A DNA stretch of 64,000 nucleotides from the IMG/VR virus record IMGVR_UViG_3300010885_052266, positions 1 through 64,000 of that record. One strand, 5' to 3'. The DNA is from a virus. Of the stretch, positions 16,337 through 43,043 are shown one piece after another; position 1 is the first letter of the stretch; each line of letters begins with the position of its first letter. The notes below the pieces were generated by a model. The model was given only the letters and a program-made list of their open reading frames with translations, was not told where the DNA came from and made no database searches. The position numbers and the translations under genes are program-made.

Positions 16337-16346
16337 TTTGGTGTAA

Positions 16347-25176: not shown

Positions 25177-25306
25177 GCAACGCGGCACAGCCGCGAAACC
25201 CCGAGCAACGGGGTTGCCTGCATGTCGCAGGCATGAGGACATACTATGAGACACACCAAAGCACGAGACGCGCCTACCCGCTATCTTCGCGCAAGCGGAG
25301 ACCGCC

Positions 25307-25450
25307 GTGTTGACCTTCATCCTTGAGGCGATTGGTGTCGTGGTCGGAGCATATCTGCTTCTGACCGTCGTGCAATTTGTCGTCTATGGGTTCTTGTCAC
25401 TTTCCGTAGCGATAATAACATGGATAGTCGTCAGGAAACTGTTCTTCTGA
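25307..25450 (+). CDS. 47 aa hydrophobic peptide
   Basis: GGAG RBS + GTG; stop TGA overlaps the next GAAA motif. Confidence 0.45.
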   Translation: MLTFILEAIGVVVGAYLLLTVVQFVVYGFLSLSVAIITWIVVRKLFF

Positions 25451-25496
25451 AACCCGCTCCGGCGGGTCCCCGGCATTTCGCCGGGATGAGGAAACC

Positions 25497-25742
25497 ATGA
25501 TCCGAACCCGACTTTTTCGGTATGGCATTATCCGGGTCGAGGATAAGCATCTCGATCAGGACAAAGCGAACCGCCGCATCGACGCCCTGATCAACGAAGT
25601 TCACAAGGGCGTCCACGGAACCGGCGAGTTCCATATCCATGCCGATCATGTCAACGAACACGGCCTGTTCACTGGTCTGTTCTACGAGACGCCGACGTTC
25701 TTCCATCCTTGCAAGGAGACGAAGCTATGGAAACCCGCGTGA
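25497..25742 (+). CDS. Array gene, hypothetical
   Basis: Motif-derived RBS; stop lies in the loop of the next motif. Confidence 0.7.
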   Translation: MIRTRLFRYGIIRVEDKHLDQDKANRRIDALINEVHKGVHGTGEFHIHADHVNEHGLFTGLFYETPTFFHPCKETKLWKPA

Positions 25743-25783
25743 GCGGGTCGCCCCGCAATGACGCGGGCCTGAAAGACATCGCC

Positions 25784-25990
25784 ATGACATTGATCAGCCG
25801 CGATCCATTTGCCCGGCAGGAGCTACACCGCGTCTTGGTCGAAACCACGAAGGGTTGCGACTGGTGCGGCGGTAAGCGCCGGTCCGGCAAAAAGCTGTTC
25901 CAATACCAGACCGAGACAGATGGCGGCAGGACAAACCCCCACAAGGGCCTGTTCTGCGACAAGGACTGCCACGACTCCTACCACGGATAG
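25784..25990 (+). CDS. Array gene, zinc-finger-like (CDWC...FCDKDC)
   Basis: ATG after motif 25730. Confidence 0.7.
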   Translation: MTLISRDPFARQELHRVLVETTKGCDWCGGKRRSGKKLFQYQTETDGGRTNPHKGLFCDKDCHDSYHG

Positions 25991-26053
25991 GCAGTCCGCC
26001 ATGAAACCCGCTCCGGCGGGTCGCCCGCATCCCGCGGGCCAGAGGACCCCGAA

Positions 26054-26617
26054 ATGCAGTCCAACCTGCCCTTCTGCGACGATCCGTACGAGAGTGCGGA
26101 CGACGCCACGCTGCCCATGCCGACCCTGTGTCGTCCCGAGGATGGCCTGACCCCTGCCCCACCCCCCGGGTGGTTCAACGTCCTGTCCTACCTGAAGGAG
26201 GCGCAAACCCTGGATGTCGGCTGCTGGATCTGCGCCCTGCAAACTGTGCAGGAAGAGGAATACCAGCACGGCAAGAAACTGCACCGAGTGGCCCGCGACG
26301 GCGAAGGTAATCGCTACCTCGTGGTCCACCCCGACCTCGCCGAAGCGTGCTGCGACATGATCGAGTCTTTCAACTCGGCATTGATGCACTGCAACTGCGG
26401 CGGGTCTGATTGCCTGGCCGGACCGGAACAGTTCCGAGCCGCCCAGGTATTCGCGACACGCCGCTGGGCCGGCCTGACACTTTCGCAACGGATCGAAATT
26501 CTCGGCTCCTACGAGGAAGGTGATGACGACAGCATCGCAATTGCGATGCAGGGTCCAGCCATCGTATCTACGTTCGGAAACACCATGCTTTTGATGGAGG
26601 TCGCTGGACGTATCTGA
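26054..26617 (+). CDS. Array gene, hypothetical acidic protein
   Basis: Bounded by motifs. Confidence 0.7.
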   Translation: MQSNLPFCDDPYESADDATLPMPTLCRPEDGLTPAPPPGWFNVLSYLKEAQTLDVGCWICALQTVQEEEYQHGKKLHRVARDGEGNRYLVVHPDLAEACCDMIESFNSALMHCNCGGSDCLAGPEQFRAAQVFATRRWAGLTLSQRIEILGSYEEGDDDSIAIAMQGPAIVSTFGNTMLLMEVAGRI

Positions 26618-26666
26618 AACCCGCTCCGGCGGGTTGCCTGTATCCCACAGGCCAGAGGACAACAAA

Positions 26667-27137
26667 ATGATCCTTACATTCAACCGCGCCGGCGTTGAGA
26701 AAATGCTGGCTCACACGCTTGAAGCAAAAGAGCACAACCGAACTTTCGACACAACCGGCAAGCCCAAGCCCAGCCTATGGCTTGTGGGGGATCAGGGCAT
26801 TTACCTGATGTCCAACGGCAAGCCCGGCCTGAGCGCGGAGGACCCGGAGAGCCCCGAACGACAGTTCATCGTCTACGCCAACGAATGCAATCCGGATCGG
26901 ATGGCATTCGACGACTGGTGGGACATAAAACAGCGTTCGTTTGGAGGAGACGATGGCGTCGAAACAATTGACGCAACTTCGTTCCAAAAAGTTCTTCGAG
27001 AGGCGACCGGACCGCTCCGAATGTCGGTAACTGCGAGCATGATAGCGCTCGCGATCCCCAAGCCCGGCCCAGCGAAAGCGAGCAAGCTTTCGGGCAAGAC
27101 CCCTTCCCGGGGATCTGCCAAGCTGGCCCCGGCCTGA
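26667..27137 (+). CDS. DUF3085 family protein
   Basis: LWLVGDQGIYLMSNG, VYANECNP, WWD...FGGDDGVE. Confidence 0.75.
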   Translation: MILTFNRAGVEKMLAHTLEAKEHNRTFDTTGKPKPSLWLVGDQGIYLMSNGKPGLSAEDPESPERQFIVYANECNPDRMAFDDWWDIKQRSFGGDDGVETIDATSFQKVLREATGPLRMSVTASMIALAIPKPGPAKASKLSGKTPSRGSAKLAPA

Positions 27138-27194
27138 ACCTGAAACCCGCTCCGGCGGGTTGCCTGGCAATCCCGCCGGGCGTGAGAAACCACA

Positions 27195-27665
27195 ATGTCA
27201 AAGCACGGTTTTGACCCGCTCTGCCGGTCAGGCTTCGACATCGACGCGAACGAAGATGAGAGCCATTTCTACGAGGAATGGCTTGTCGTCTATTCGGCCG
27301 ACTTCGGCTCGATCCGGGAAGAATGCAACGCACACGCCTTGGTCAAAAGCCTGAACGACAAGGAAACGTATAGTTCCTGCATATACTACACGGACTGCGG
27401 TTCCTTCGTCGTTCTGGTTGACCCGGAGTGTGATACAGCCATCAAGACGGCTCAACTGCTTGTTGAGTTCATCGCGGCTGGCAACGATCTCGACCCCGCT
27501 AAATATCTCAAATCGTTGGACGAGGCGTGCCGGGACGACTGGTTCGAAGCCGACTTCTCCGAACGGGTCGATCTGCTGATGCTGGCCGATGGCGACATCG
27601 GCTTGGTGGTCAAATCTGACCCGCCCGACGTCGTAATGCCGTTCCTGCAAGAGCGACACGAGTGA
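27195..27665 (+). CDS. Array gene, very acidic hypothetical protein
   Basis: Bounded by motifs. Confidence 0.7.
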   Translation: MSKHGFDPLCRSGFDIDANEDESHFYEEWLVVYSADFGSIREECNAHALVKSLNDKETYSSCIYYTDCGSFVVLVDPECDTAIKTAQLLVEFIAAGNDLDPAKYLKSLDEACRDDWFEADFSERVDLLMLADGDIGLVVKSDPPDVVMPFLQERHE

Positions 27666-27716
27666 AACCCCCAAGGGGGTCACCTGCAATTCCGCAGGTC
27701 TGAAACAGAGGCCTCA

Positions 27717-27956
27717 ATGGCAACCGAATACCACGCCCTCTGGGAGGAAAGCGGAGACAACTGCCTGGACGATCGAAAGGTCGGCCAACTGCTGCGGCGC
27801 TGCGATCTGCCGAGCGCCTTCGCCTTCCTCCGGCTCATCGCGGGTCGAACGAAAGTCGCCCCGCTCTGCCTGATCCTGGACGACGGCAAAACGGCACTCA
27901 TCAAAGTGATCCCGGAAGCCGACTACAAGAAAGGCATGACATATCAGTCTATCTGA
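27717..27956 (+). CDS. Array gene, hypothetical
   Basis: Bounded by motifs. Confidence 0.65.
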   Translation: MATEYHALWEESGDNCLDDRKVGQLLRRCDLPSAFAFLRLIAGRTKVAPLCLILDDGKTALIKVIPEADYKKGMTYQSI

Positions 27957-28016
27957 AACCCGCTCCGGCGGGTCGCCCGCACCACGCGGGCCTGAATGAA
28001 AGGAACCATCCAATCG

Positions 28017-28388
28017 ATGCAAATCGAAATCGTGAACCGCTGCCCTCACGGCGTCACACTGATCGACTCCGAGGGCCGCCCCCGCACCTATGAGCAGGTC
28101 GGGCCAGCGGTTCGTATCGAGACCGAGGCCGGACCCGCTGTGGGTGTGGCTTCAGGCGTGCCGATCCATGCGCCGTCCCGGATCACCGGCATCACCAACC
28201 TGCCTCCCAAGCGGGACGGGACCGTGATTGTGGTGTCCAAGATCGCTGCCATGGAAATTGCCCGGCAGCTCCCGGAGCGAGACGACGTGGTCTACCCCGG
28301 ATCAGCACCAGACGAGAAAGCGGTGCGCTCTGGGGATGCGCGCCGTCGTGTGCTGGGCGTGACACGCTTGGTCCGCGCGACTGAATGA
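28017..28388 (+). CDS. Array gene, conserved-looking phage protein
   Basis: IVNRCPH...NLPP..GTVIVVS...DDVVYP pattern. Confidence 0.65.
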   Translation: MQIEIVNRCPHGVTLIDSEGRPRTYEQVGPAVRIETEAGPAVGVASGVPIHAPSRITGITNLPPKRDGTVIVVSKIAAMEIARQLPERDDVVYPGSAPDEKAVRSGDARRRVLGVTRLVRATE

Positions 28389-28439
28389 AACCCGGCTGGT
28401 CCGGGTCGCTGGCATTACGCCGGCATGAGGACCACGCAC

Positions 28440-28712
28440 ATGCGAGAAATTATCTATCGACCCGTCGCGGGGGTGAAATGCCCGGACGGGAAGACCCGAA
28501 CCGTTCGGGCCAGATCCACGATCTACAGCAAGGGCCTGCATCCCGACACCGCCTTCTCCGTGCCTGCCTATGTGCAGGTCTCGGGCAAGACGGTGTCGGG
28601 CTTCATCGCCCCGGCCGATGGTCTTGCGTTCCAGCAGGAACATGGCCCCGAGCTGGAGTTCACCCCCTTCTCGGGGCGCCGCAACCACGACGTGTTCGAG
28701 AAACCCGGTTGA
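28440..28712 (+). CDS. Array gene, hypothetical
   Basis: PDTAFSVPA.V.V.GKTVSGFI; stop in the motif loop. Confidence 0.7.
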   Translation: MREIIYRPVAGVKCPDGKTRTVRARSTIYSKGLHPDTAFSVPAYVQVSGKTVSGFIAPADGLAFQQEHGPELEFTPFSGRRNHDVFEKPG

Positions 28713-28753
28713 TCCGGGTTGCCCGCAATCCCGCGCGGCATGAGTAAATCAAA

Positions 28754-29587
28754 ATGAAACAGAAAGCACCGACCAATCATCAAAAGGCAATCGCCGACGA
28801 GATGAGAAAGGTCAGCGGTCGGCATACCATCTATCAGGTCTTCAACGACTTCGTGGAGATGGCAGCCTTAGCCTTGCGCAACACCTGCGACTTTGCCAAT
28901 CGAGACGCCAGAGAGCGACGCTACCTGGATATCGAAGGCAAATACGAGCGCAAGGACGTGAAAGCCTTCCGAAGAATGATGGGAGAGCTGATCGCGGCTA
29001 TGGAGGCGGGCCCCGAGGATGTCCTCGGGGCCGTGTTCCACGACCTGGAACTGGGCAACAAATACACAGGCCAGTTCTTCACGCCCTACCACGTGTCCTA
29101 CATGATGGCCAAGATGACCATGCACGACCTGAAGGGCCATCCAGCCTTGCAGGAGCCGGGCGGGTTCATCACCGCGGCCGAACCGGCCTGCGGTGCTGGC
29201 GGCATGATTGTCGCCATGGCCCATGCCTGCATGGACGAGGCGGTGAACTTCCAGGAACAGCTGCACGTCATGGCGGTCGATGTCGATCCGCGCTGCGTGC
29301 ACATGTCCTACGTCCAGGCCGCCCTGCTCGGCATTCCGGCGATCATCCACCTGGGGAACTCCCTGACGCTGGATATCCGGGAAGCTTGGCCGACACCGGC
29401 CCACATCACGGGCCTGTGGGCGTACCGCCTCCACCGACGCGGCATCGATGAGGCTGACGCCACCTGGTGGCGTCAGCACACCTTGGCCCAGCGGGCATCC
29501 ATGCTCGCTGAGCACGATGTCGACCTGGGCCAGATCGATGCGCCCCGGCCTCCCAGGGTAATCCTGGAGAGCCGGCAAGCGACATAA
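28754..29587 (+). CDS. N-6 DNA methylase-like protein (short form, no NPPY/F visible)
   Basis: GQFFTPYHVS, EPACGAGGM, VDVD..CVHM, GNSL. Confidence 0.8.
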   Translation: MKQKAPTNHQKAIADEMRKVSGRHTIYQVFNDFVEMAALALRNTCDFANRDARERRYLDIEGKYERKDVKAFRRMMGELIAAMEAGPEDVLGAVFHDLELGNKYTGQFFTPYHVSYMMAKMTMHDLKGHPALQEPGGFITAAEPACGAGGMIVAMAHACMDEAVNFQEQLHVMAVDVDPRCVHMSYVQAALLGIPAIIHLGNSLTLDIREAWPTPAHITGLWAYRLHRRGIDEADATWWRQHTLAQRASMLAEHDVDLGQIDAPRPPRVILESRQAT

Positions 29588-29652
29588 GCCGCCTGACTCC
29601 TGAAACCCGGTTCGCCGGGTAGCTGGCATGACGCCAGCCTTAGGAAATCACA

Positions 29653-30339
29653 ATGAACACAGCAAACGAGACGCGCGCCCTCGTCGAGCAGGTCAAGGCC
29701 GAGGTATTGGCCGCCCTGCCGATAATCGCCATTGGCGACAAGGTCACGCGCTTGATGGAAATGGCCTTCCCCGACTTCAATGAAATGGGAAGGCGCCTGA
29801 TGCCCAACCTTGGCACGATCACCAACGACGTCCTTGCCAAGCACGGTCTGTCCAAGCTGCCGGTCGACACGATGCGCTACCTGAACGGGGCGATTATCGT
29901 GCACAGCCGTGATGAGGTCGACAAGAGCCACCACGTCGCCGTTCAATTCCGCGACCAGATCATGGAAGAGCGGCTCGACATCGCGCTGGGCCTGTCCCCC
30001 TTAACCGTGGGGCCGGCCGAGCTGATGGCCGTCATGCACGAAGCGACGTTCGAAGCTCCCTTGGAGCCTGCCCTTTCCGAACTCTACATGTGGGCCGCGC
30101 GGGCCGCGATCGAACACAAGTCCGGTCAGGTCTACCCCTACGCCAAGGAAAGCAGCGGCGGACCCCGGCGGCTTACCGAGGACGATGTGCTGAACAAGCA
30201 CCCCTGGTGCGACGAATACCGGCAAATCGCCGGCTCGATCCGCAACAAGGTGGTGGCCGAGGCCAAGAGCCGCGAACGGTCCGGGAAACCGGCCCAGACG
30301 GCACCACAAGCCGCGACGGACCTGTTCGCCACGGCTTGA
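29653..30339 (+). CDS. Array gene, hypothetical
   Basis: Motif-derived RBS. Confidence 0.7.
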   Translation: MNTANETRALVEQVKAEVLAALPIIAIGDKVTRLMEMAFPDFNEMGRRLMPNLGTITNDVLAKHGLSKLPVDTMRYLNGAIIVHSRDEVDKSHHVAVQFRDQIMEERLDIALGLSPLTVGPAELMAVMHEATFEAPLEPALSELYMWAARAAIEHKSGQVYPYAKESSGGPRRLTEDDVLNKHPWCDEYRQIAGSIRNKVVAEAKSRERSGKPAQTAPQAATDLFATA

Positions 30340-30437
30340 CGCATTCGATGTGAATCACCACATTATAGTGTGTAGCCACGAAACCCGGCCAGCCCGGGTT
30401 GCTCGCAATCCAGCGGGCCTGAAAACTGGAAACCATC

Positions 30438-30794
30438 ATGCAAGGCATGAAGCTGACAGCCCTGGCTTACCACCGCAACGGCGTGGCGGGCGAGGGATTC
30501 TGGGCCGTCGCGTTCACTTGGCGCAGCGGCCTCCGAAAGCCGATCAACATGGTCGCCACCGTGTTCGAAAGCAACGAACACGACGCAGCCGAGGTCCACC
30601 CCTGCACCGGCCACCTGGCAGTGCTGGATGCGACCCTCGCAGCTCTCGGCTTGGTAAAAGCCAGATGGCGCGGCGACGACTTCGAGCCGCAACTGCGGCA
30701 GTGGATCGCACAGCACCATGCGGCACAGGCGGCCAAGCAGGCGGCCAAGCAGGCGGACAAGCTGGCGAAGGCCGAGAATGACGTCGCCGCCTGA
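30438..30794 (+). CDS. Array gene, hypothetical
   Basis: YHRNGVAGEGF...WRGDDFE. Confidence 0.7.
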   Translation: MQGMKLTALAYHRNGVAGEGFWAVAFTWRSGLRKPINMVATVFESNEHDAAEVHPCTGHLAVLDATLAALGLVKARWRGDDFEPQLRQWIAQHHAAQAAKQAAKQADKLAKAENDVAA

Positions 30795-30852
30795 CTACCG
30801 AAACCCGCCCTGGCGGGTCTGCGGGCATCCCGCCCGCAATGAGGAAATTACA

Positions 30853-31572
30853 ATGAGTTTGTTCGACCAGTTCGCCGCAACCCTGCGGCGAAAGACGGAA
30901 TTCTCAGAGGCGTCATGGGAGATCGGCGGCAAGCTTGAATTGCTGCTGTTCGATGACGCGATCTCCGAAGCCAAAAGGCGTTTTCCAAAACGTCGGATCG
31001 GCACGGGACGCGATGGGTGGATAAAGGCCCAGAACGTCCTGCCCCCGGAGGTCTACGCCGCCATCAAGGCACCACTCGAATTAAGGTTCGAGAAGTGGCG
31101 GGAGGACCGGCAGCAAAAACTGGATGAGTTTGACGCCCTGTTGAAGATCCTGGCCGGTCCAGCCGAAATCCCCAAGACCGAGGAGCCTTTCTGTGCCCGG
31201 ACCATATCGGGGACAGATTTCGGCAGCCAGGGCTCCGGCGCCAACAAATACGCGAGCGGTATGGCGGAATCCATCGCCGATGACGCGCGCTTCGTTGGCC
31301 TGTCAGCTGAGGTCAAATCCCGGGTGTATCTCACTACAACGGGGAGCTGGCCGCAGACGTACATGTCCTACGACGTGTTCGTGAACACGACCCCCGACGG
31401 TTGGGCCGCTGCCATGATGAAGCCCCGCATAGAGATGCGGGAGGTCATCCGGCTTTGCTGGAAGCGGGGCGTAAACCCCCGCGTCTACTACCCGTTTCTC
31501 CCGTACGACTATGAGGAAAAGCAGGGCATCGGCCATTTCGGAGATGATCTCAACGAACGCGCCGCAGCCTGA
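30853..31572 (+). CDS. Array gene, hypothetical
   Basis: Bounded by motifs. Confidence 0.7.
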   Translation: MSLFDQFAATLRRKTEFSEASWEIGGKLELLLFDDAISEAKRRFPKRRIGTGRDGWIKAQNVLPPEVYAAIKAPLELRFEKWREDRQQKLDEFDALLKILAGPAEIPKTEEPFCARTISGTDFGSQGSGANKYASGMAESIADDARFVGLSAEVKSRVYLTTTGSWPQTYMSYDVFVNTTPDGWAAAMMKPRIEMREVIRLCWKRGVNPRVYYPFLPYDYEEKQGIGHFGDDLNERAAA

Positions 31573-31628
31573 ACCCGAAACCCGGTTGATCCGGGTCCCT
31601 GGACTCCTTCCAGGATGAGGAAATCAAC

Positions 31629-31982
31629 ATGATGAAAACGACTGCCAGCGCACGCGGGAAGGCGGCACCACCGCCGGAAGACGCCCCGATCGTGACGCGA
31701 GACGACCTTACGCTCCTGGGCATGATGAACCTGCGAGTCATGTGCTTTCGGCCCGAAACCGTCGGCAACGTCGGTGTCCCGAGGGACATAATCGGCCTGG
31801 ACGGCAATACTGCCATCCTTTGGCGGTCCGCGAGCGAGTCCCGCTACGAATTTGACGGTTGGGCCCCCTGGCACGACGGGATGAACGGCGGGCACAGAAA
31901 GACGCTCGCCTCAGCCCTCCACTGGGTCCAGCGCGCGAGAGATATCCGGGCCGGCTCGGCCACGGACTTCCGCGGCTGCTGA
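31629..31982 (+). CDS. Array gene, hypothetical
   Basis: Bounded by motifs. Confidence 0.65.
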   Translation: MMKTTASARGKAAPPPEDAPIVTRDDLTLLGMMNLRVMCFRPETVGNVGVPRDIIGLDGNTAILWRSASESRYEFDGWAPWHDGMNGGHRKTLASALHWVQRARDIRAGSATDFRGC

Positions 31983-32037
31983 CCGCACTGAAACCCGCCC
32001 AGCGGGTCGGCCCATCCCGGGCCATGAGGAAATCAAC

Positions 32038-32322
32038 ATGAGCAAACCAAACCCTGATCCGTTCGCCATCGGCCTGGACATCGACGATTTGTTGATCGGC
32101 TATCGCGCGGTGCACGAACTGGTTAATGCTGCGAACGTCATGGCCAACCGGCTTGGCACGCGCAGCCCCTTTGTGCGCCTGCTGCAAGCCACCGCCGAGA
32201 TGCTCGACGAGGTCCTGCAGCCGGAATCGACGCATGAGCAAGTCAAGCACATCCGGGACCGCCTCCAAGGCGAACGCGCCGCTCTGACCGCTATCTACGG
32301 TCCACTCAGCGAGGCGCGATGA
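32038..32322 (+). CDS. Array gene, hypothetical
   Basis: Motif-derived RBS. Confidence 0.65.
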   Translation: MSKPNPDPFAIGLDIDDLLIGYRAVHELVNAANVMANRLGTRSPFVRLLQATAEMLDEVLQPESTHEQVKHIRDRLQGERAALTAIYGPLSEAR

Positions 32323-32582
32323 TCATGAATCGTCGCCCCCCGATCTGCGAGCTGGTCGGTCGCAACGTGCGGCAGGCGCGGGTGAGTCGCTCAATGTCGC
32401 TGACTAGTCTGTCGGCCGCCTCCCGAATCTCCCGGTCCTACATCATCAGCCTGGAGCATGGACGCCGAAACCCCAGCCTGTTCATTCTTGACAACTTGGC
32501 CAAAGCCCTAGGGGTCGAGACGCGCGATCTGCTCGCGCCTGAGAAACCCGGTTTATCCGGGTCGCCGCCTTCTGCGGCATGA
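32319..32582 (+). CDS. XRE-family HTH regulator
   Basis: VGRNVRQAR...SRSYIISLEHGRRNPSL..L.NLAKALGV; reads through motif 32543. Confidence 0.85.
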   Translation: MIMNRRPPICELVGRNVRQARVSRSMSLTSLSAASRISRSYIISLEHGRRNPSLFILDNLAKALGVETRDLLAPEKPGLSGSPPSAA

Positions 32583-32592
32583 GGAAATCAAC

Positions 32593-33147
32593 ATGCTCTC
32601 AACACGAGAACCCCCCGTGCGACCCGCGACCCTCGCGGAGGAATTCGCACTTGAGATGAAGTTCCGCCCTACCCACGTCATCACCGAGTCCGGCATCGAG
32701 CCAATCACGGCGGTGCCCGTCGCTCCCGACCCAGTGCAGATCGCGCTGATGGAGGAGCCGGACGTGCTGGTGACGGGGGCGATGTGGTCGGCGGCCGGCA
32801 TGGCCGGACAGATCGACATCCTGGCCGCGGTCGGCCTGCCCGCCGACCTGGTCGGAGCCGGAGACGTCTTGGATGTGTTTACCGAGCAGACCAGACTTTG
32901 GCTGCGCGGCTGGCAGATGCAGGTCAACACCGGCTCTTGCTGGGGCACCAGTGGCAGCATCGGCCGCCAGGCCAACGATCTGATCCAGGCAGGCTACCTG
33001 CTTTGGTCCAACGACCCGGTCAAAGACTGGGCCGGCTATGACCTGCCGACCCGGACCAGCGTGATGTCCGGCACTCCGGGCAGCGCGGCGTACGTCAATC
33101 TGATGAACGGCCCGCGCTACCTGACGTGGATATCGGTCATCCGGTGA
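32593..33147 (+). CDS. Array gene, hypothetical
   Basis: WQ..VNTG.CW...GSIGR.A..LI..G pattern. Confidence 0.7.
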   Translation: MLSTREPPVRPATLAEEFALEMKFRPTHVITESGIEPITAVPVAPDPVQIALMEEPDVLVTGAMWSAAGMAGQIDILAAVGLPADLVGAGDVLDVFTEQTRLWLRGWQMQVNTGSCWGTSGSIGRQANDLIQAGYLLWSNDPVKDWAGYDLPTRTSVMSGTPGSAAYVNLMNGPRYLTWISVIR

Positions 33148-33201
33148 CCCACGAAACCCGCTCCGGCGGGTCGCCCGTATCCCACGGGCATGAGGACTGA
33201 A

Positions 33202-33477
33202 ATGACAATCAGATCAATCACCATGGACGAGCTTCTCGCGAAGTTCGATCATTGCACGCGCCCGGCTATCCAGATGCTGCCGAGGAAGCAACCCACGGCG
33301 ACCCACATCGCCCTGTTCGAGAACCTCCAGGCGGACAGCAGCGCGCTCGGCGCACGCACAGCCGTGCTGGTCGGACCGGACAACACCTTCAAAACCCTGG
33401 AGGAGATCGACGGTCGGCACCTGGGCGACCTGCCCAGCCAGCGCCAATACGCCGTCGCCGCAGTGGCTCTGACATAG
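33202..33477 (+). CDS. Array gene, hypothetical
   Basis: Bounded by motifs. Confidence 0.65.
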   Translation: MTIRSITMDELLAKFDHCTRPAIQMLPRKQPTATHIALFENLQADSSALGARTAVLVGPDNTFKTLEEIDGRHLGDLPSQRQYAVAAVALT

Positions 33478-33530
33478 CCACGAAACCCGCCCCGGCGGGT
33501 CGGCCCATAACGGGCTATGAGGAAATCACC

Positions 33531-33938
33531 ATGACATCGAGAGTTTTGATCAACGAGGCGTCACAAGCCTCCACACTCGACCCGGCGTTCACCCTTGAAG
33601 GGAGGAGCGTCGGCGACATCCTCAAGGATGTGAACGCGGCCATGCAAGCGGCCGGGATCGAGGCGGAGGAGTATGACTTCAGCGACATGACCAGATACCT
33701 CGACGCCGCAAATCGGGGGTGGCCCACCATACCAGCATGGGTCGCCTGCTTTCCCGTCTGCGGTACCAACGAGGGGTTTTACGTCCACATTGAGCTGATC
33801 TTCCGGCAGGAGATCCCCAATCTCCAACGCCGTCTGATCGGACTGGCGAAGTGCTACACCTGGGAGAACGCCCTGCAGATGGCCGCCTTTGCCGCGACCA
33901 TCTTCGAGGGAAAAGACTCCTGGAGGTATCGGACATAG
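33531..33938 (+). CDS. Array gene, hypothetical
   Basis: GTNEGFYVHI; bounded by motifs. Confidence 0.7.
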   Translation: MTSRVLINEASQASTLDPAFTLEGRSVGDILKDVNAAMQAAGIEAEEYDFSDMTRYLDAANRGWPTIPAWVACFPVCGTNEGFYVHIELIFRQEIPNLQRRLIGLAKCYTWENALQMAAFAATIFEGKDSWRYRT

Positions 33939-33996
33939 ATCCCGAAACCCGCTCCGGCGGGTCCGCAGGCATACCGCCTGCACTGAGGAAATCACC

Positions 33997-34359
33997 ATGA
34001 TCCCGAAACCCATCTTTCGAACCCCCAACCGGTTCGAGAACGCACTCATGATTCAATCGGGCGCCTGCAACGGCGCTGCGATCGCCGGCTCGCTGCATCA
34101 GGCGTACCGGGAGGCGCGGGAAGAATACCGCGACACCGACCGGACGAACCGAGACCCTGCGGTGCAGATGATCCTGCACCAACTGTGCCACCTGGGCCGC
34201 ATCTCGACGGACGACTACTCCCATCCGAGTGGTTTCCGCTACGATCGGGCCTACCGCGAGTGCGTGGATCGCTGCCAGTCCTACAGGACGCTGGTCCTGC
34301 TCGGCGAAGCCGACCGGGCTTGCATCTTTGTGTGCGACTCACCACATTACGATGTGTGA
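33997..34359 (+). CDS. Array gene, hypothetical
   Basis: Bounded by identical motifs. Confidence 0.7.
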   Translation: MIPKPIFRTPNRFENALMIQSGACNGAAIAGSLHQAYREAREEYRDTDRTNRDPAVQMILHQLCHLGRISTDDYSHPSGFRYDRAYRECVDRCQSYRTLVLLGEADRACIFVCDSPHYDV

Positions 34360-34412
34360 GAAACCCGCTCCGGCGGGTCCGCAGGCATACCGCCTGCACT
34401 GAGGAAATCACC

Positions 34413-34832
34413 ATGAACCATCGAATCGTTATCACCGACCCGCTCAGGGTGCGGGCCATGATCCAGTATGCTCGCCAGCACCGCTGCGAGGAAAAGCTCG
34501 GCATGGCGCTGATCCGCCTCCTGGAGGTGGCAACCATCGGTATGATGAAGCCCTACGCCGGCAGCGACGCTGACAACCCGAAATTCAAGCTGGAGCCGAC
34601 CGACGTTCCGATCACGGCTGTGATCGGCGCTGACCATGCTCCCATGTCGCTCGGTTTCGCGCTGTTCCGTGGCGCTGACACGCCCCAGGTTCCGTTCGGA
34701 AAATACGACGTCACCTGGGCCGGCGGCTTCATCTACGAAGGTCCGCGCCAGCCTCTCAACGGCTCGGCACCGGCGCTGACGGTCAACATCGGCGGCGACT
34801 CCAGCCAGCATAGCTGGTCGGTGCACACGTGA
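34413..34832 (+). CDS. Array gene, hypothetical
   Basis: D.AP.S.GF, GGFIY.G, WSVHT pattern. Confidence 0.7.
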   Translation: MNHRIVITDPLRVRAMIQYARQHRCEEKLGMALIRLLEVATIGMMKPYAGSDADNPKFKLEPTDVPITAVIGADHAPMSLGFALFRGADTPQVPFGKYDVTWAGGFIYEGPRQPLNGSAPALTVNIGGDSSQHSWSVHT

Positions 34833-35044
34833 TGCCGACCTGCCTCTCTGCGGCCGAGCAGGCTCTCCAGCTGAAAGAGGCCGGTGAGCGCCTCGTGCTT
34901 GCGTTGAGAGCGCAACGCGCCGCTTACAACGCGTGGCAAGCCGCCCCGGCTGGACCAGGCTGGGTCCCAGCTCTGGAAGCCTACGACGCGGCCAACAAAG
35001 GCGTCGATGACGCCCAACTCGCCGTGGACGCGCTCCACGTCTGA
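34829..35044 (+). CDS. Array gene, hypothetical (coupled, no motif upstream)
   Basis: GTGA overlap. Confidence 0.55.
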   Translation: MMPTCLSAAEQALQLKEAGERLVLALRAQRAAYNAWQAAPAGPGWVPALEAYDAANKGVDDAQLAVDALHV

Positions 35045-35101
35045 ACACGAAACCCGCTCCGGCGGGTCCGTAGGCATACCGCCTGCACTGAGGAAATCAC
35101 C

Positions 35102-35389
35102 ATGACAGAATCCGAAACAATCCAGCGGACCGTCTTGGTCCGACTGAAACGCAAAGTGATCACATATCAGCACCAAGACGTTGAACTGAAGTTCACCGAC
35201 GCTGATGTGCGGGAGGTCCGGCAGATCCCGGACGGCGAGCGAATCTGGGCCGACGAAATAGAGTTTTACGCTTTCGAGGTTGCCGAACTCCTGGATAAGC
35301 CCGATCAATGGGTCGAAACCCGGCCGGAAGCGTTCGAAGAACTCGACTCCGAGATCGAGGACGCCGATCCGCCGCTCCCGACCGAATGA
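35102..35389 (+). CDS. Acidic hypothetical protein, paralog A
   Basis: Clearly similar to 35439..35747. Confidence 0.75.
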   Translation: MTESETIQRTVLVRLKRKVITYQHQDVELKFTDADVREVRQIPDGERIWADEIEFYAFEVAELLDKPDQWVETRPEAFEELDSEIEDADPPLPTE

Positions 35390-35438
35390 AACCGCCCACC
35401 GGGCGGTCGCCTGCATCCCGCAGGCATGAGGACTTACC

Positions 35439-35747
35439 ATGACTGACCAAACACCAGTCGGCGGCCGCAGCGAGCACATTGAACGGACTGTTACGGTTCG
35501 GCTCAAGCGGAAAATCACCCGCTATCAGCACCAGTACGTCGAACTGAGGTTCACCGATGACACGGTTCGTGGAGCGTGGCAGATCCCACCTGGCACGCCT
35601 GTCTCGGCCAACGAAATCGAGGCTTACGCCTGTGAAGAGGCTGAAACGATGGACGTGTTCGATAAGTGGGTCGAGACGAACCCGGACTCGTTCGAAGAAC
35701 TCGACTCCGAGATCGATGATGCCGATCCGCCCCTCCCGAAGGACTGA
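35439..35747 (+). CDS. Acidic hypothetical protein, paralog B
   Basis: Shares RLKRK..YQHQ.VEL.FTD and FEELDSEI.DADPPLP with paralog A. Confidence 0.75.
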   Translation: MTDQTPVGGRSEHIERTVTVRLKRKITRYQHQYVELRFTDDTVRGAWQIPPGTPVSANEIEAYACEEAETMDVFDKWVETNPDSFEELDSEIDDADPPLPKD

Positions 35748-35799
35748 AACCCGCTCCGGCGGGTCCGCAGGCATTCCCGCCTGCGATGAGGAAATCAGC

Positions 35800-36168
35800 A
35801 TGATCACAGGTGTTCACGAGATCACACCGGCCACCTCCGAGATTGTCGACGCCGCAGCCGACGTCGTGCGGATCCACGATTACAATCCGCACGAGACCCC
35901 GCCGATTCTGCTCGCCATCAGCGAGTCAAGGAGCGACGAGGAGACCGCGGCCTTGGGCAGAGCGTTCCTTGCTCGTTACGCAAATAGCAGGCTCCCGTCC
36001 TATAAAACCGCCGTGACCCGCATCCAGTGGGCACTGGTGGCACATGGACCCGTCAAGCCAATGGCCGATCCGGATATCGACGAGGCGTTGGCGCTTGCTG
36101 AGCGCCCTCTGGATACCCCGTCGCTCGATACATCCTTCCACGACCACGAAATGAACGTGGATTGCTGA
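35800..36168 (+). CDS. Array gene, hypothetical
   Basis: Bounded by motifs. Confidence 0.6.
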   Translation: MITGVHEITPATSEIVDAAADVVRIHDYNPHETPPILLAISESRSDEETAALGRAFLARYANSRLPSYKTAVTRIQWALVAHGPVKPMADPDIDEALALAERPLDTPSLDTSFHDHEMNVDC

Positions 36169-36245
36169 TCGGGCCCGAACGGAGCGCCACCAATGAAACC
36201 GCCCACCAGGCGGTCGCCTGCATCCCGCAGGCATGAGGACTTACC

Positions 36246-37466
36246 ATGAACGTAATGACCAAACCGATCCTCGATGACGACGCCACGGTTGGCGTGCGCA
36301 AGGTCGACGCGACCCGCGGGCAGAACCGCGGCGAGGTGTCGTCACAATGGTTCCGGCGCGGCGACGATGAGCGATTCCTGTCGCTCACGGAGCTGATGGA
36401 ATTCGTGTCGCGCCGCCGCGACGCGTCGATCGAGGAGAAAATCAAAGCCGGCCAGATGCGCTTCCAGGGCTCCGAGGAGGAGACGGAGGTGCTGAAGGCA
36501 TTTCTGCCCGATGGCCGGCCCATCCAGCCCACCCATCATTCCTTCGGCCAGTTGTGCCAGTTGGGGAAGATGGGCCGGGCCACCGAGGTTTTCCGGTCCC
36601 AGCCGAGCTGGCTGGCCGGGCTGAACCTCAGCTACGGCCTGTCCCGCAACGTGCGGGACGAGCCGGTCAAGGTCTACGCCGACGGCGAGAAGATGATTCT
36701 TCGCGCCGCCACCGGTCCTGATTACGGCCGGATCTTCGACGCGACGCTGGTCGAGTCCGTGATGAAATTCGCGGGCAACGGCACCAGCGATTCGCGCTGG
36801 AAGGTTCCGGGCGTGATGAACTGGTCCGATTCGACCTATAATCCCTACGTGGACGTGACCAAGGAGACCACAACCTTGTTCGCGTCCGACCGGGACGTCT
36901 TTGTCTTTCTGTGCGACGACACGCACCCCATTGAAATTGGCAAACTCGACAACGGCGATCCCGACCTTATTTTTCGCGGTTTCTACTGTTGGAACAGCGA
37001 AGTCGGGACCCGCTCGCTCGGTATCGCGACCTTCTGGTTGCGGGGCGTTTGCCAGAATCGCAACCTTTGGGGAGTCGAGGACTTCGACACCTTGCGGATC
37101 GTGCACACCAAGTACGGCAACGATCGCTTCGTTCGCGAGGCGGCGCCGGCGCTTGAGCGTTATGCCACCAGCGAGCCCACCAAGCTCCTGGCCGGCATCA
37201 ATGCAGCGAAGAACGCCAAGGTGGCGAAGGATGATGAGGAGCGCACCAAGTTCCTCACATCCGACGCACTCGGCTTTTCCTTCAAGCGTGCGCAGCAGAT
37301 CATCGAGACCTGCGAGCGCGAGGACGGACGCAAACCCGAGACAGCGTGGGACATGGTCAACGGCATTACCGCCGTTGCTCGGACCATTCCGCAACAGGAC
37401 CTGCGCCTGGATGTCGAGAAAGTCGCATCCAAGCTGATGGACCGGGCCGCGCGCAACGCGGCTTGA
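36246..37466 (+). CDS. DUF932-like protein (alphaproteobacterial plasmid/phage type)
   Basis: SSQWF.R.DDERFLSL, LRAATGPDYGRI, ASDRDVFVFL, FRGFY.WNSEVG, VCQNRNLWG. Confidence 0.75.
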   Translation: MNVMTKPILDDDATVGVRKVDATRGQNRGEVSSQWFRRGDDERFLSLTELMEFVSRRRDASIEEKIKAGQMRFQGSEEETEVLKAFLPDGRPIQPTHHSFGQLCQLGKMGRATEVFRSQPSWLAGLNLSYGLSRNVRDEPVKVYADGEKMILRAATGPDYGRIFDATLVESVMKFAGNGTSDSRWKVPGVMNWSDSTYNPYVDVTKETTTLFASDRDVFVFLCDDTHPIEIGKLDNGDPDLIFRGFYCWNSEVGTRSLGIATFWLRGVCQNRNLWGVEDFDTLRIVHTKYGNDRFVREAAPALERYATSEPTKLLAGINAAKNAKVAKDDEERTKFLTSDALGFSFKRAQQIIETCEREDGRKPETAWDMVNGITAVARTIPQQDLRLDVEKVASKLMDRAARNAA

Positions 37467-37523
37467 CCACCTGAAACCCGCTCCGGCGGGTCGCTGGCAT
37501 TCACGCCAGCATGAGGAGACAAT

Positions 37524-37850
37524 ATGCCCCACACTCCAGGCCCTTGGGCCGCTGGCGCATCTCTGATCACGAATTGGTCCCAGGAGCGGCAGGACAAGCG
37601 AAACACCGAGGGTAGAACGCGCACCGTTGAGATCGCGCTTGTCCGTGAACCCTTACGCATCGCGCGTAACGGTCCCGACACCATGGGCGAATACGAGGCC
37701 AACGTGCGGCTGATCACGGCCGCGCCTGACCTGCTGGAAGCACTGCGTGCCATCGTGCATCAGGTGCTGCAGGGCTCAGTCCTGGAACGTGATGCTTGCC
37801 TACGACAGGCCCAAGAAGCCATCGCCAAGGCGACCATGAAACCCGGCTGA
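37524..37850 (+). CDS. Phage protein of the HTPGPW...ANxRLIxAAPDLLEAL type
   Basis: Signature motifs; stop in the motif loop. Confidence 0.75.
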   Translation: MPHTPGPWAAGASLITNWSQERQDKRNTEGRTRTVEIALVREPLRIARNGPDTMGEYEANVRLITAAPDLLEALRAIVHQVLQGSVLERDACLRQAQEAIAKATMKPG

Positions 37851-37899
37851 GCCGGGTCGCGCCGCCACACCGCGGCGCCTGAAAAGGATACTCACATAA

Positions 37900-38907
37900 A
37901 TGCAAGAAACTGCTCTGGCTCATCACGAGCCGGATCTTCCATCGTACGACCACATCATTGTGGCGTTCAGTGGCGGCAAGGACTCACTCGCGTGCGTCCT
38001 GCATTTGCTTGAGCTGGGCGTGCCGGCGGACAAGATCGAGCTGCACCACCATCTCGTCGATGGTGGTGGCGGAACGGCTCTTATGGACTGGCCGGTGACC
38101 GAAGCCTACTGCGCGGCAGTCGCGCAGGCGCTTGAGATGCCATTGCTCCGCTCCTGGCGGTGCGGTGGCTTCTTGCGCGAGATGACCCGAGACAACCAGC
38201 CGACCGCCTCGATCATGTTCGAGCGGCTCGATGGCACACTCACAGAGGTCGGCGGCAATGGGCCAAAGGGGACGCGCCTGCGCTTCCCCCAGGTCTCTGC
38301 CGACCTCTCGGTGCGCTACTGTAGCGCCTATCTGAAAATCGACGTGTGCGACGCGTTGATCCGCAACGATGACCGCTTTCGCGGCACACGCACGCTGGTG
38401 GTAACCGGCGAGCGTGCCGAGGAAAGCTCGGCCCGGGCCCGCTATGCGGTGTTCGAGCCGCATCGGGCGGATCTGCGCGACGGACGGCGCTACCAGCGCC
38501 ACGTCGACGCCTGGCGGCCCGTCCACGGCTGGTCACGCGAACAGGTATGGGCGATCATCCAGCGCCACGGGATCATCCCGCACCCGGCCTATTACATCGG
38601 CTGGGGCAGGCTGTCCTGCTTGTGCTGCATCTTCGGAAGCCCGGACCAATGGGCTTCCATCAAAGCGATCGCGCCCTGGGAATTCGACCGGATCGCGCAA
38701 TACGAGAGGCAATTCGGCACCACCATCCATCGGACCGAATCGGTGGTTGCGAGGGCCGCAAAGGGGAAACCCTACGCGGCAATCGAGGCCAACCCCGATC
38801 ATGTCTCGACATGCCTGGATATGGCATTCTATGCCCCGGTTCGCTGCAACCCCGCTGACTGGCTCATGCCGGCCGGCGCGTTTGGCGAGAACACGGGGCC
38901 AACCTGA
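37900..38907 (+). CDS. PAPS reductase family protein
   Basis: VAFSGGKDSLA, RYCSAYLK, GERAEESSARA, HPAY..GWGRLSCLCCI. Confidence 0.88.
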   Translation: MQETALAHHEPDLPSYDHIIVAFSGGKDSLACVLHLLELGVPADKIELHHHLVDGGGGTALMDWPVTEAYCAAVAQALEMPLLRSWRCGGFLREMTRDNQPTASIMFERLDGTLTEVGGNGPKGTRLRFPQVSADLSVRYCSAYLKIDVCDALIRNDDRFRGTRTLVVTGERAEESSARARYAVFEPHRADLRDGRRYQRHVDAWRPVHGWSREQVWAIIQRHGIIPHPAYYIGWGRLSCLCCIFGSPDQWASIKAIAPWEFDRIAQYERQFGTTIHRTESVVARAAKGKPYAAIEANPDHVSTCLDMAFYAPVRCNPADWLMPAGAFGENTGPT

Positions 38908-38959
38908 AACCCGCTCCGGCGGGTCGCCTCGCAATCACGCGAGGCAAGAGGAATTCAAA

Positions 38960-39304
38960 ATGGAAAAAGAAGAACCATGGCGCCGGGAAATTGTCCGGCG
39001 TGACGTCGTATTCGCGTCACTCGATGAGCTGGGGAATATCCTCTCGAAAAAACAGGCCAAGGCGTTCGTCTGGCCGGACGAGGGAGAATTCCGCGGCGGT
39101 GACTGGCACTTCAACGATGAGCACCGCGGCCAATACGAGCCTCTGATCATCGATCCGCAGACGGCGAAAGCGATGACCGTAATCCATGACTCCCTGAGCC
39201 CCAGGAACCAGGCGACGTTTGCCGGACATGTAAGCAAGGGGCGGGGCCACTTCGGGGTGTGCTTTGAATTCTCCTGGAAGCATGTTCGCTTTGGCTCGAC
39301 CTGA
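38960..39304 (+). CDS. Array gene, hypothetical
   Basis: Bounded by motifs. Confidence 0.7.
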   Translation: MEKEEPWRREIVRRDVVFASLDELGNILSKKQAKAFVWPDEGEFRGGDWHFNDEHRGQYEPLIIDPQTAKAMTVIHDSLSPRNQATFAGHVSKGRGHFGVCFEFSWKHVRFGST

Positions 39305-39359
39305 AACCCGCTCCGGCGGGTCACCTAGCGCCGATGCGAGGCATGAGGAAACTGAAACT

Positions 39360-39596
39360 ATGACAGACTACCTTATCACCGAACTCGACGACGGTTTCCA
39401 CGTCCGCGTCCTTGCTGCTGCCAGGACCACAGAAACCGCCTATAAGAAGTTCGCCAAAGAGAGCCGGGCCCGATGGGCTGCAGGCCAGACTTTTTTTAGC
39501 CCTGTACGTCGCGTCCGCGGTGGCCGCTCGCAAGTTCACGGCATGCTGGACCGCGACGTAGCGGCGCTGCCCACTTGGGGCGATGACGCACCCTGA
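39360..39596 (+). CDS. Array gene, hypothetical
   Basis: Bounded by motifs. Confidence 0.6.
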   Translation: MTDYLITELDDGFHVRVLAAARTTETAYKKFAKESRARWAAGQTFFSPVRRVRGGRSQVHGMLDRDVAALPTWGDDAP

Positions 39597-39646
39597 AACC
39601 CGCTCCGGCGGGTCGCCCGCATCTCCGCGGGCCAGAGGAAACCACG

Positions 39647-39970: not shown

Positions 39971-39972
39971 CC

Positions 39973-43028: not shown

Positions 43029-43043
43029 GACCGGAGCACGGCT

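Follow-up and report, generated by a model that had tools for sequence, protein, structure and literature searches.

A freshwater phage genome of 101 kb (IMGVR_UViG_3300010885_052266) carries about 30 small accessory genes separated by copies of a double-hairpin module with hammerhead-like parts. Does this module still cut the RNA, is it a site for a protein or a recombinase, or has an old ribozyme been turned to another use?

Element copies and the accessory-gene operon

The window analysed is the stretch of 64,000 nt at positions 1 to 64,000 of the record. An earlier note on it had described a 29-copy array at 25.2-39.6 kb. A covariance model built from six copies recovered all 29 on the + strand, together with four outliers at 16.3-18.1 kb (16344, 16720, 17226 and 17994), giving 33 copies in the 100,879-bp genome; the search detected no further copy in the rest of the genome (~60 kb). 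All 33 are on the + strand, co-oriented with the genes, and the pattern GAAACCC..GGGT has 27 matches on the + strand but none on the - strand, with 0.21 expected. The copies are listed with the base between the hairpins (H17) and the box, as noted for each.

25191..25239, +, H17 U, box AUGAGGA
25445..25492, +, H17 C, box AUGAGGA
25726..25775, +, H17 C, box CUGAAAG
25999..26046, +, H17 C, box CAGAGGA
26612..26659, +, H17 U, box CAGAGGA; a related strain has a 526-nt cassette deletion with one breakpoint here
27138..27188, +, H17 U, box GUGAGAA; second breakpoint of the 526-nt deletion
27660..27706, +, H17 C, box CUGAAAC with a separate AGAGG
27951..27998, +, H17 C, box CUGAAUGAAAGGA; both flanks differ in runs X4 and X5
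28383..28431, +, H17 C, box AUGAGGA
28696..28746, +, H17 U, box AUGAGUA
29598..29645, +, H17 A, box CUUAGGA
30376..30425, +, H17 U, box CUGAAAA
30796..30845, +, H17 C, box AUGAGGA; one breakpoint of a 778-nt deletion; top Rfam Hammerhead_II score of the window
31573..31621, +, H17 C, box AUGAGGA; second breakpoint of the 778-nt deletion
31986..32030, +, H17 C, box AUGAGGA
32539..32585, +, H17 C, box AUGAGGA; joined in run X4 to element 37469 on a 34-nt flank (weak support)
33149..33196, +, H17 C, box AUGAGGA
33478..33523, +, H17 C, box AUGAGGA
33940..33989, +, H17 C, box CUGAGGA (canonical core letters); C.A mismatch at 1.1-2.1, no 10.1-11.1 pair
34356..34405, +, as 33940, box CUGAGGA
35045..35094, +, as 33940, box CUGAGGA; Rfam Hammerhead_II 17 bits
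35384..35432, +, box AUGAGGA; paralogous genes on either side; one breakpoint of an 807-nt deletion (X4, X5)
35742..35792, +, H17 C, box AUGAGGA
36191..36239, +, box AUGAGGA; second breakpoint of the 807-nt deletion; 41 nt the same as in copy 35384
37469..37517, +, H17 C, box AUGAGGA
37834..37885, +, H17 C, box CUGAAAAGGA
38902..38952, +, box AAGAGGA; one breakpoint of a 687-nt deletion (X3, X4)
39299..39349, +, hairpin 2 imperfect, box AUGAGGA
39591..39639, +, box CAGAGGA; second breakpoint of the 687-nt deletion
16344..16387, +, outlier: GAAA, hairpin 1, short hairpin 2, then promoter-like TTGATA..TATCTA in place of the ribosome-binding site
17226..17269, +, outlier: duplicate of 16344
16720..16783, +, outlier: 7-bp stems, long hairpin-1 loop with UCCUC, H17 U, box CUGAUGA, no stem II
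17994..18057, +, outlier: duplicate of 16720

The surroundings of the array contain the following features.

24709..24738, +, TAGACT-18-TATACT, promoter-like, within an AT-rich gap; the array operon putatively starts here
39973..40012, +, intrinsic terminator (13-bp stem and T run) right behind the last array gene, likely operon end
40453..43957, +, recombination module adjoining the array downstream
40453-41463, +, exonuclease of this module
41460-43028, +, Erf-like single-strand annealing protein of this module
43412-43957, +, SSB of this module

Judged from these signals, the accessory-gene operon of ~15 kb that holds the array appears to extend from the promoter-like site at 24.7 kb to the terminator at 39.97 kb. 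Inside the element no promoter or T-run was found. Its GAGGA is the Shine-Dalgarno sequence of the next gene, 4-10 nt 5' of the ATG, just as the earlier note had proposed, and N7 is G in every window copy, the pattern expected for a Shine-Dalgarno sequence. The stop codon of the upstream gene often overlaps GAAA (cUGAAAC). In folding models, the ribosome-binding site was predicted to be slightly more accessible with the native element than with the element shuffled (0.49 vs 0.44; 20 of 29 copies, p=0.015); this lends weak support to the main reading given below, and the small size of the modelled insulation effect counts against it.

The note had also claimed that selection acts on structure. 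We found strong covariation in both hairpins: across the 29 copies 99.7% of cells were paired, compensatory double changes occurred at 8 of 12 pairs, and none of 500 shuffles reached the observed values. G.U pairs appear only when the module is read on the + strand. Selection thus acts on the structure of both hairpins.

Hammerhead ancestry and the missing ribozyme parts

The likeness to hammerheads turned out to be true homology. The most conserved block of the element is the 19-mer of GAAA and hairpin 1 (GAAACCCGCTCCGGCGGGT), and the exact 19-mer of GAAA, stem III and U recurs in other viral contigs within canonical type II hammerhead arrays. Those canonical copies read GAAA-hairpin-UC-hairpin-CUGAUGA and have a covarying stem II of 3-4 bp (3.41 contiguous pairs vs 2.05 permuted, p<0.0005) and a pseudoknot between loop I and the tail (4.06 vs 3.38 permuted, p<0.001). 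This sequence evidence makes the module a homologue of type II hammerhead ribozymes. Two helices have been kept, stem III as hairpin 1, which mostly carries a C(UCCG)G tetraloop, and stem I as hairpin 2; GAAA and U-H are kept as well.

Other parts are missing. Stem II, whose conservation the note had already failed to see, was not found in the window copies (0.41 contiguous pairs vs 0.52 permuted), and among pairings of any loop with any flank we detected neither a third helix nor a pseudoknot. Rfam Hammerhead_II gave no strong match, the window copies scoring 21.8 bits at most with a threshold of 37. Recounting the 29 array copies reproduced the base frequencies given earlier, namely C 23, U 5, A 1 and G 0 at H17 and A at position 3 in 16 of 29; it also returned CTGAGGA at 33944, 34360 and 35049 and CTGATGA at 16724 and 17998. 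The former three are the only array copies with CUGANGA, and none of them has the 10.1-11.1 pair. That three copies carry a letter-perfect CUGAGGA nevertheless counts against the main reading.

This bears on two proposals of the note. A whole gene cannot take the place of stem II, since in the type II permutation stem II would be the pairing of the two short flanks of one element. Ribozyme cleavage at each UH finds no support in the sequence, because stem II, the pseudoknot and C3 are all missing. The module copies in this phage probably do not cut themselves.

Related phages form a graded series. IMGVR_UViG_3300047174_000111 (96.6 kb; large terminase, TerL, 52% identical) has 18 copies of the module in its accessory operon and IMGVR_UViG_3300012974_000540 (93.3 kb; TerL 45% identical) has 26. 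In these two uncultured phages the G10.1-C11.1 pair is retained in 34 of 37 copies, N7 is free and a residual stem II is seen (0.65 vs 0.38, p=0.008); A is frequent at position 3, and there is overlap between box and ribosome-binding site. All three features, G10.1-C11.1, free N7 and residual stem II, are lost in the window phage and in the Ga0172380 contigs. Since the two related phages still hold more hammerhead features, the comparison suggests that these were lost step by step. All four genomes invariably have GAAA, an A15.1-U16.1 pair and an H17 other than G; this is what a catalytic core would conserve and a structural role does not obviously require it, an observation that goes against the main reading.

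Could a reduced variant, with an A3 core and no stem II, still cut after H17, maybe slowly or with a ribosome or protein to keep both core strands together? In that case the operon transcript would yield single-gene mRNAs with hairpin 2 at the start and hairpin 1 at the end. We consider this distinctly improbable. Most copies do keep GAAA, A15.1-U16.1, a non-G H17, U4-G5-A6 and G8-A9. The related phage G002 combines NUGANGA and its free N7 with G10.1-C11.1 in 24 of 25 copies, even though A prevails at position 3, as if a core were under constraint rather than a ribosome-binding site. Among natural hammerheads, those whose stem II has 1-2 bp are active (PMC3088659); however, the active one-base-pair example is discussed there along with its pseudoknot, while the window copies have no stem II, no conserved 10.1-11.1 pair and no substituting pseudoknot. 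Moreover, the C3-G8 pair is known to covary only to U3-A8 and here A3 stands opposite G8, and the three CUGAGGA copies are mismatched at 1.1-2.1, for which such candidates were rejected in the same paper.

On the other hand, the copies could be decaying hammerhead relics or selfish repeats that today do nothing beyond providing the Shine-Dalgarno sequence. The degenerate and heterogeneous core would fit this, but the hairpins remain 99.7% paired despite many compensatory changes. In addition, distant metagenome relatives, whose array genes are 41-48% identical in amino acids, have the stem-II-less AUGAGGA form in common and show compensatory stem changes at orthologous junctions. We hold this reading to be very unlikely.

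Possible protein recognition and exchange of cassettes

The 19-mer is identical in 16 array copies, and GAAA is conserved although a ribozyme core is lacking, which needs some explanation. One candidate is protein recognition: an endoribonuclease (an RNase E-like host enzyme or a phage-encoded one) would replace the ribozyme and cut the single-stranded GAAA or UH, or an RNA-binding regulator would control all array genes jointly. An A-rich single strand just 5' of a stable hairpin is a typical RNase E site context, and here GAAA lies immediately 5' of a very stable hairpin. Conversely, identical 19-mer blocks could stem from gene conversion among the repeats, and a scan of ~50 proteins detected no domain of RNase, RNA ligase or RNA-repair type, which is weak evidence as many proteins have no family. 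We hold recognition by a protein to be possible, if unlikely.

In metagenome contigs of related strains we observed deletions and a changed gene order, and the breakpoints lay inside the elements. Four element-to-element joints are well supported (26613>27140, 30813>31592, 35401>36209 and 38947>39635), with 526, 778, 807 and 687 nt deleted, respectively. The crossovers fall in the first 27 nt, in the 3' strand of hairpin 1, in 41 nt that extend from hairpin 1 to the box, or in the box itself. Against the main reading, the identical 41 nt are longer than the assembler's word size, and a joint across them could be an assembly shortcut. Element 27955 (copy 27951..27998) has foreign sequence on both flanks in two runs (X4 and X5), and the tandem paralogues around copy 35384 are 66% identical. 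Gene order is not fixed: a more distant relative, G001, has only 5 of 31 cassettes in common with the window phage, and in a different order.

The alternative offered in the note, a ssDNA or RNA site making genes into exchangeable cassettes, is therefore supported as to exchange. Breakpoints at differing element positions fit homologous recombination between repeats better than a dedicated site-specific ssDNA site. The cassette-like layout, single orientation and strain-variable gene content would suit an attC-like site, folded as ssDNA and cut by a recombinase, yet the crossovers are scattered, no integrase was found among the scanned proteins, there are two separate perfect hairpins instead of a single imperfect one, and the ribosome-binding site supplied by the element implies a role at the RNA level. 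We give site-specific recombination hardly any credence.

The reading to which we give slightly better than an even chance is a hammerhead-derived intergenic module that probably does not cut itself, folds the RNA, presents the ribosome-binding site and provides portable homology for cassette shuffling. The 3' core strand of the hammerhead would have been co-opted as the Shine-Dalgarno sequence of the next gene, with neither stem II nor a loop I/tail pseudoknot left and efficient self-cleavage presumably lost. On the mRNA, the module may be a self-contained folding unit that shields each ribosome-binding site from adjacent coding sequence and furnishes every cistron with stable terminal hairpins. 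The 45-55 nt of common sequence would be a substrate for homologous recombination, by which single-gene cassettes could be deleted, duplicated and reshuffled; genes for an exonuclease, Erf and SSB, encoded by the phage itself, adjoin the array downstream. Recombination at the repeats may be a by-product and not a selected function.

Comparison with known systems

Integron attC sites resemble the array in having promoterless co-oriented gene cassettes with structured repeats between them; they differ in fold, and the window has variable crossover points and no integrase among the scanned proteins. RiboJ is a synthetic insulator in which a hammerhead and then a hairpin precede the ribosome-binding site, freeing expression from upstream context. 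Its action depends on cleavage, which the natural module of the window has probably lost.

The SAS/ESAS of Cluster K mycobacteriophages put a conserved ribosome-binding-site motif right before many start codons, some copies with upstream inverted repeats (PMC3203893). As that paper describes SAS, its sequence is unrelated, it has no hammerhead ancestry and there are fewer copies per genome. The PeSL of T4-type phages are mobile regulatory cassettes with an early promoter and a terminator stem-loop (PMC2839356, PMC4122927). They share with the module a repeated intergenic stem-loop motif in hyperplastic regions that bounds insertions, deletions and replacements among close relatives via repeat recombination. 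Unlike PeSL, the window element has no promoter or T-run, bears the ribosome-binding site and derives from a ribozyme.

Further counterparts are the type II hammerheads that occur in clusters flanking single genes of phages and prophages (Perreault et al. 2011, PMC3088659; Rfam RF02276). Those form clusters of 2-3 copies, compared to 29-33 in the window phage, where Rfam scores are far under the threshold. The window module differs by having no stem II, no pseudoknot, mostly A3 and an N7 fixed to G; its core strand itself serves for ribosome binding, and GAAA is overlapped by the stop codon. Still, in both the parts run from GAAA through the stem III hairpin, U-H and the stem I hairpin to the 3' core strand, and both lie between co-oriented small genes, anti-restriction-type genes included, and the stem III sequence of the module is identical to that of canonical hammerhead copies in other viral contigs.

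A two-hairpin element at the gene junctions of the array

Almost every gene junction between 25.2 and 39.6 kb carries the same element, made up of GAAA, hairpin 1 (usually CCCGC-UCCG-GCGGG), U, a non-G base, hairpin 2 with a variable stem and a loop of about AUCCC, the box NNGAGGA, and an ATG 4-10 nt further on. The anchored pattern of the element occurred 27 times on the + strand compared to 0.21 expected. A covariance model, built from six copies and run over the genome, recovered 29 of the 29 array copies as well as four at 16.3-18.1 kb, all on the + strand, and found none elsewhere in the genome. In the 29 array copies 99.7% of the cells were paired, with compensatory double changes in 8 of the 12 pairs; none of 500 shuffles reached the observed values of pairing and covariation, and slid registers likewise did not come close. 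The few G.U pairs were compatible with the + strand only. The 29 double-hairpin copies with pairing kept that the earlier note described were thus all found again, and its counts for H17 (the cleavage-site base), for position 3 and for the CTGAGGA and CTGATGA copies proved correct on recount. At the level of sequence, both hairpins are selected on the transcript strand, and the element supplies the predicted ribosome-binding site and often also the stop codon.

In a 62-nt context the two hairpins had energies of -19 to -30 kcal/mol. We also observed that the hairpin-2 loop and the spacer that follows GAGGA often both have the sequence (A)AUCAC or AAUCACC, in the same orientation and not complementary, and that no pairing partner could be found for this sequence. 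It is similar to the GAUCACC found close to the 3' end of 16S rRNA. A short reading frame starting at the AUG of the box was dropped as a candidate, its frame relative to the gene start not being conserved among copies or relatives.

The following features of the window locate the array within the phage genome.

93-1787 and 2330-3478, - strand: large terminase subunit and a shorter second protein upstream, both matching the same terminase families
18509-18594: tRNA-Arg (86 nt, anticodon CCG), flanked by the non-coding repeat region and the antirepressor gene
24709-24738: promoter-like site in an AT-rich gap
26667-27137: gene of a DUF3085 protein
39973-40012: intrinsic terminator, the only strong one, right behind the last array gene

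Given the promoter-like site and the lone strong terminator, the array looks like a single operon of ~15 kb. Most of the roughly 31 genes in it have no known relatives. A few encode proteins of anti-restriction or plasmid leading-region type, namely DUF3085 and DUF932 proteins, an N6-methylase-like protein and a PAPS reductase. Directly downstream of the array are an exonuclease, an Erf-like annealing protein and SSB. The source record, of which the window is the first 64 kb, has 100,879 bp and direct terminal repeats. Contigs matching the window come from freshwater and lake metagenomes, and cultured phages gave no nucleotide match to it. The host is possibly an alphaproteobacterium, an assignment kept tentative by a TerL identity to cultured phages that does not exceed 38% and is highest for Rhizobium and Erythrobacter phages.

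Related structures were observed upstream of the array. The outlying copies at 16720-16783 and 17994-18057 have a 13-nt hairpin-1 loop (GGUCCUCCCCUCG or GGUCCUCCCAUCG) containing UCCUC, the exact complement of the GAGGA box of the array; as a speculation, their RNA might mask array ribosome-binding sites in trans. In Rfam both matched the alphaproteobacterial sRNA ar14 weakly, with 18.9 and 16.9 bits against a threshold of 58.8. A duplicated block of roughly 95 nt (16344-16440 and 17226-17320) combines GAAA and hairpin 1 with a second, short hairpin, followed by a promoter-like TTGATA-18-TATCTA/TATTTA and a further hairpin, and appears to start a duplicated non-coding region of 330-420 nt (16450-16783, 17635-18057). 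Another hammerhead-like repeat, with three copies at about 16600-16690, 17790-17875 and 17880-17960 and no Rfam match, consists of GAAAG(C/U)CGAGAG, a long insert, CCCUCGGC, N, C, UGCGGA..UCCGCA and (C/U)UGA.. with a non-canonical 3' strand. Finally, closed three-stem junctions resembling type III hammerheads stand at 15114-15175 and 15520-15590, each before a gene; their cores are non-canonical (GUGACC.. and CUGAUGC..), the 3' strand of their stem III is the ribosome-binding site, and Rfam recognised neither.

Relation to hammerhead ribozymes

The hammerhead likeness claimed in the earlier note stood for one part of the element and fell for the other. GAAA and the A15.1-U16.1 pair closing stem III were invariant in 29 of 29 copies, in agreement with the G12-A13-A14 of RF02276, and stems III and I were closed, covarying hairpins as in that family. 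H17 was never G (C in 23 copies, U in 5, A in 1), which is a weak test, the copies being related. The core strand C3-U4-G5-A6-N7-G8-A9 with a C3-G8 or U3-A8 pair was not preserved: CUGANGA occurred in 3 of 29 copies, position 3 was A in 16, and several boxes were CAGAGGA or CUGAAA. N7, which is free in real hammerheads, was always G in the window copies, the pattern expected under selection of GAGGA as a Shine-Dalgarno sequence. For the C3-G8 base pair, covariation is known only to U3-A8 (PMC3088659). The three CUGANGA copies had a C.A mismatch at 1.1-2.1 and lacked 10.1-11.1, the first stem II pair.

The earlier idea that a whole gene takes the place of stem II was mistaken, as in this permutation stem II would be made by the element's own two flanks. 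In the window these flanks formed 0.41 contiguous pairs compared to 0.52 when permuted, so that stem II was absent, and the 11.1/10.1 base combinations were random. The loop I/3' tail pseudoknot was absent as well (3.13 vs 3.15 permuted), and neither loop I nor loop III was found to pair with a flank in the window copies. A stem II formed between different copies, or in a dimer, was ruled out, permuted flank pairings being without complementarity.

The Rfam scan proposed in the earlier note gave at best 21.8 and 17.0 bits for Hammerhead_II, both below the gathering threshold of 37 (E up to 10), in a test that is insensitive, since even phage copies that look canonical stay below it at 27.3 bits. 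The sole match in the window at gathering threshold was a tRNA. Within 25000-40200 there was no match at E up to 10 to the radC, DUF3085 and STAXI RNA motifs, the DUF3085 motif going unmatched although the DUF3085 protein gene is present at 26667-27137.

A search of viral contigs with a 19-mer of hairpin 1 returned several unrelated contigs with canonical type II hammerhead arrays that have the same GAAA and stem III sequence. There the order is stop codon, 3-4 nt, GAAA, hairpin, UC, hairpin, CUGAUGA and the complement of those 3-4 nt, which matches the description of type II hammerheads by Perreault et al. 2011 (PMC3088659). The 34 canonical copies served as positive controls for both tests: a covarying stem II is present between their flanks (3.41 contiguous pairs vs 2.05 permuted, p<0.0005), and so is pairing between loop I and the 3' tail (4.06 vs 3.38 permuted, p<0.001). 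Since GAAA and stem III are shared with these arrays, the window element is, on this comparison, homologous to hammerheads, beyond mere similarity. Viral contigs with canonical type II arrays also include L094 (3068-3121) and L090 (5388-5440), where a twister-P5 ribozyme (44.5 bits) and a type III hammerhead (51.8 bits) exceed the Rfam thresholds as well.

A looser pattern search led to two related uncultured phages, G001 (IMGVR_UViG_3300047174_000111; 96.6 kb, TerL 52% identical, 18 model matches) and G002 (IMGVR_UViG_3300012974_000540; 93.3 kb, TerL 45% identical, 26 model matches). Their box is NUGANGA with all four bases occurring at N7, and position 3 in G002 is mostly A or U. G10.1-C11.1 was present in 34 of 37 copies, with slight pairing beyond it (0.65 vs 0.38, p=0.008), and the pseudoknot was not detectable. 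Contigs of distant relatives from another sample (L127, L130, L131), with proteins 41-48% identical to three array genes, share with the window the (C)AUGAGGA form that lacks stem II, and at orthologous junctions their stems differ by compensatory changes. These forms fall into a series from canonical arrays, through a reduced core with a stem II of 1-2 bp, to the two-hairpin form of the window, which is not recent decay, judging by its being kept over considerable divergence. Sequence comparison establishes a hammerhead ancestry with loss of stem II, the pseudoknot and C3.

Among four loci of relatives reached via the DUF932 protein none had the element, so it is not tied to the DUF932 gene; via the exonuclease no relatives were found. 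The pattern GGGTC..ATGAGGAAATCA gave 25 chance matches in viral contigs, none recognised by the covariance model, and the full element pattern was unmatched in bacterial and archaeal genomes.

Recombination at the elements

Contigs of four metagenome runs were compared with 24.5-40.5 kb of the window. Related-strain contigs contained four element-to-element joints with long flanks on both sides, while a fifth joint, 33931>33471, had a 7-nt identity just 5' of two elements. The joints rest on short-read contigs, and the 41-nt joint is longer than the likely word size of the assembler.

Table. Element-to-element joints in related-strain contigs (joint; genes skipped; letters common at the joint; metagenome run)
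26613>27140; one; 27; X4
30813>31592; one; 6; X4
35401>36209; two; 41; X4, X5
38947>39635; two; 6; X3, X4

The crossover intervals occupy different parts of the element, and the joints therefore fit homologous recombination better than cleavage at a fixed site. Neighbouring elements in the window have long identical stretches in common. Element 27955 had foreign sequence on either side in two runs. Two tandem paralogous genes (35102-35389 and 35439-35747), 66% identical with one element between them, point to cassette duplication. The window and G001 have only 5 of 31 cassettes in common, and in a different order. Together with the strain joints this rules out a fixed gene order, which was part of what the earlier note said would reduce the element to a repeated RBS/stability hairpin; its alternative view of the genes as exchangeable cassettes is supported by the joints, the flanks of 27955 and the reordered cassettes of G001. 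On the evidence of these contigs, recombination does occur at the elements.

Possible roles and comparison with known systems

We infer that efficient self-cleavage has been lost from the module, which would serve as a compact spacer between genes. Its two very stable hairpins may separate every ribosome-binding site from coding sequence; in modelling, the unpairedness of the site was 0.49 vs 0.44 (p=0.015), a small effect. The hairpins could also cap mRNA segments, and the repeated sequence could let the phage recombination genes reshuffle cassettes. The compact spacer leaves the invariant GAAA, A-U pair and non-G H17 without explanation. The same invariance would fit two less likely alternatives, a residual or assisted ribozyme activity and cutting or binding of the element by a protein. 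No RNase, RNA ligase or RNA-repair domain was recognised among the phage proteins scanned. It is rather improbable that the stem-II-less A3 elements are catalytic, as a new minimal hammerhead with core strands joined, for example, by a ribosome or protein and not by stem II. A terminating or initiating ribosome could then sit on UGA/GAAA and GAGGA, uniting the core strands, and cleavage would be coupled to translation of the neighbouring genes.

This lineage is a natural experiment on the role of hammerheads between phage genes, a question since 2011. Its graded series begins with canonical ribozymes and ends with two-hairpin modules in which structure and ribosome-binding site are kept and the parts required for catalysis are lost. 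If the reduced form does not cleave, the selected value of such arrays may be largely structural, in cistron insulation, mRNA-end stabilisation and portable homology for gene shuffling; if it does, the minimal requirements of hammerhead catalysis need revision. The strain comparisons give direct evidence of the repeats as seams where phage accessory-gene arrays get rebuilt.

Since 2011 it has been known that clustered hammerheads can flank single phage genes (PMC3088659); a limited literature search found no paper on stem-II-less hammerhead derivatives fused to a ribosome-binding site. In function the element comes closest to two known systems, PeSL cassettes in T4-type phages (PMC2839356, PMC4122927) and SAS/ESAS motifs in Cluster K mycobacteriophages (PMC3203893). 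Like PeSL, the element is a repeated intergenic motif bordering indels and replacements between close relatives, as seen in the four joints and the flanks of 27955. On the other hand, the PeSL motif combines an early promoter with a terminator stem-loop, whereas none of the window elements has a promoter-like site or a T-run. The element also differs from integron attC, which recombines at one fixed position by the integron integrase, while the crossover intervals in the window vary; a non-exhaustive scan of the phage proteins found no integrase. What is new here is the failure of the stem II and pseudoknot tests alongside positive controls, the graded series and the strain-level shuffling at the elements.
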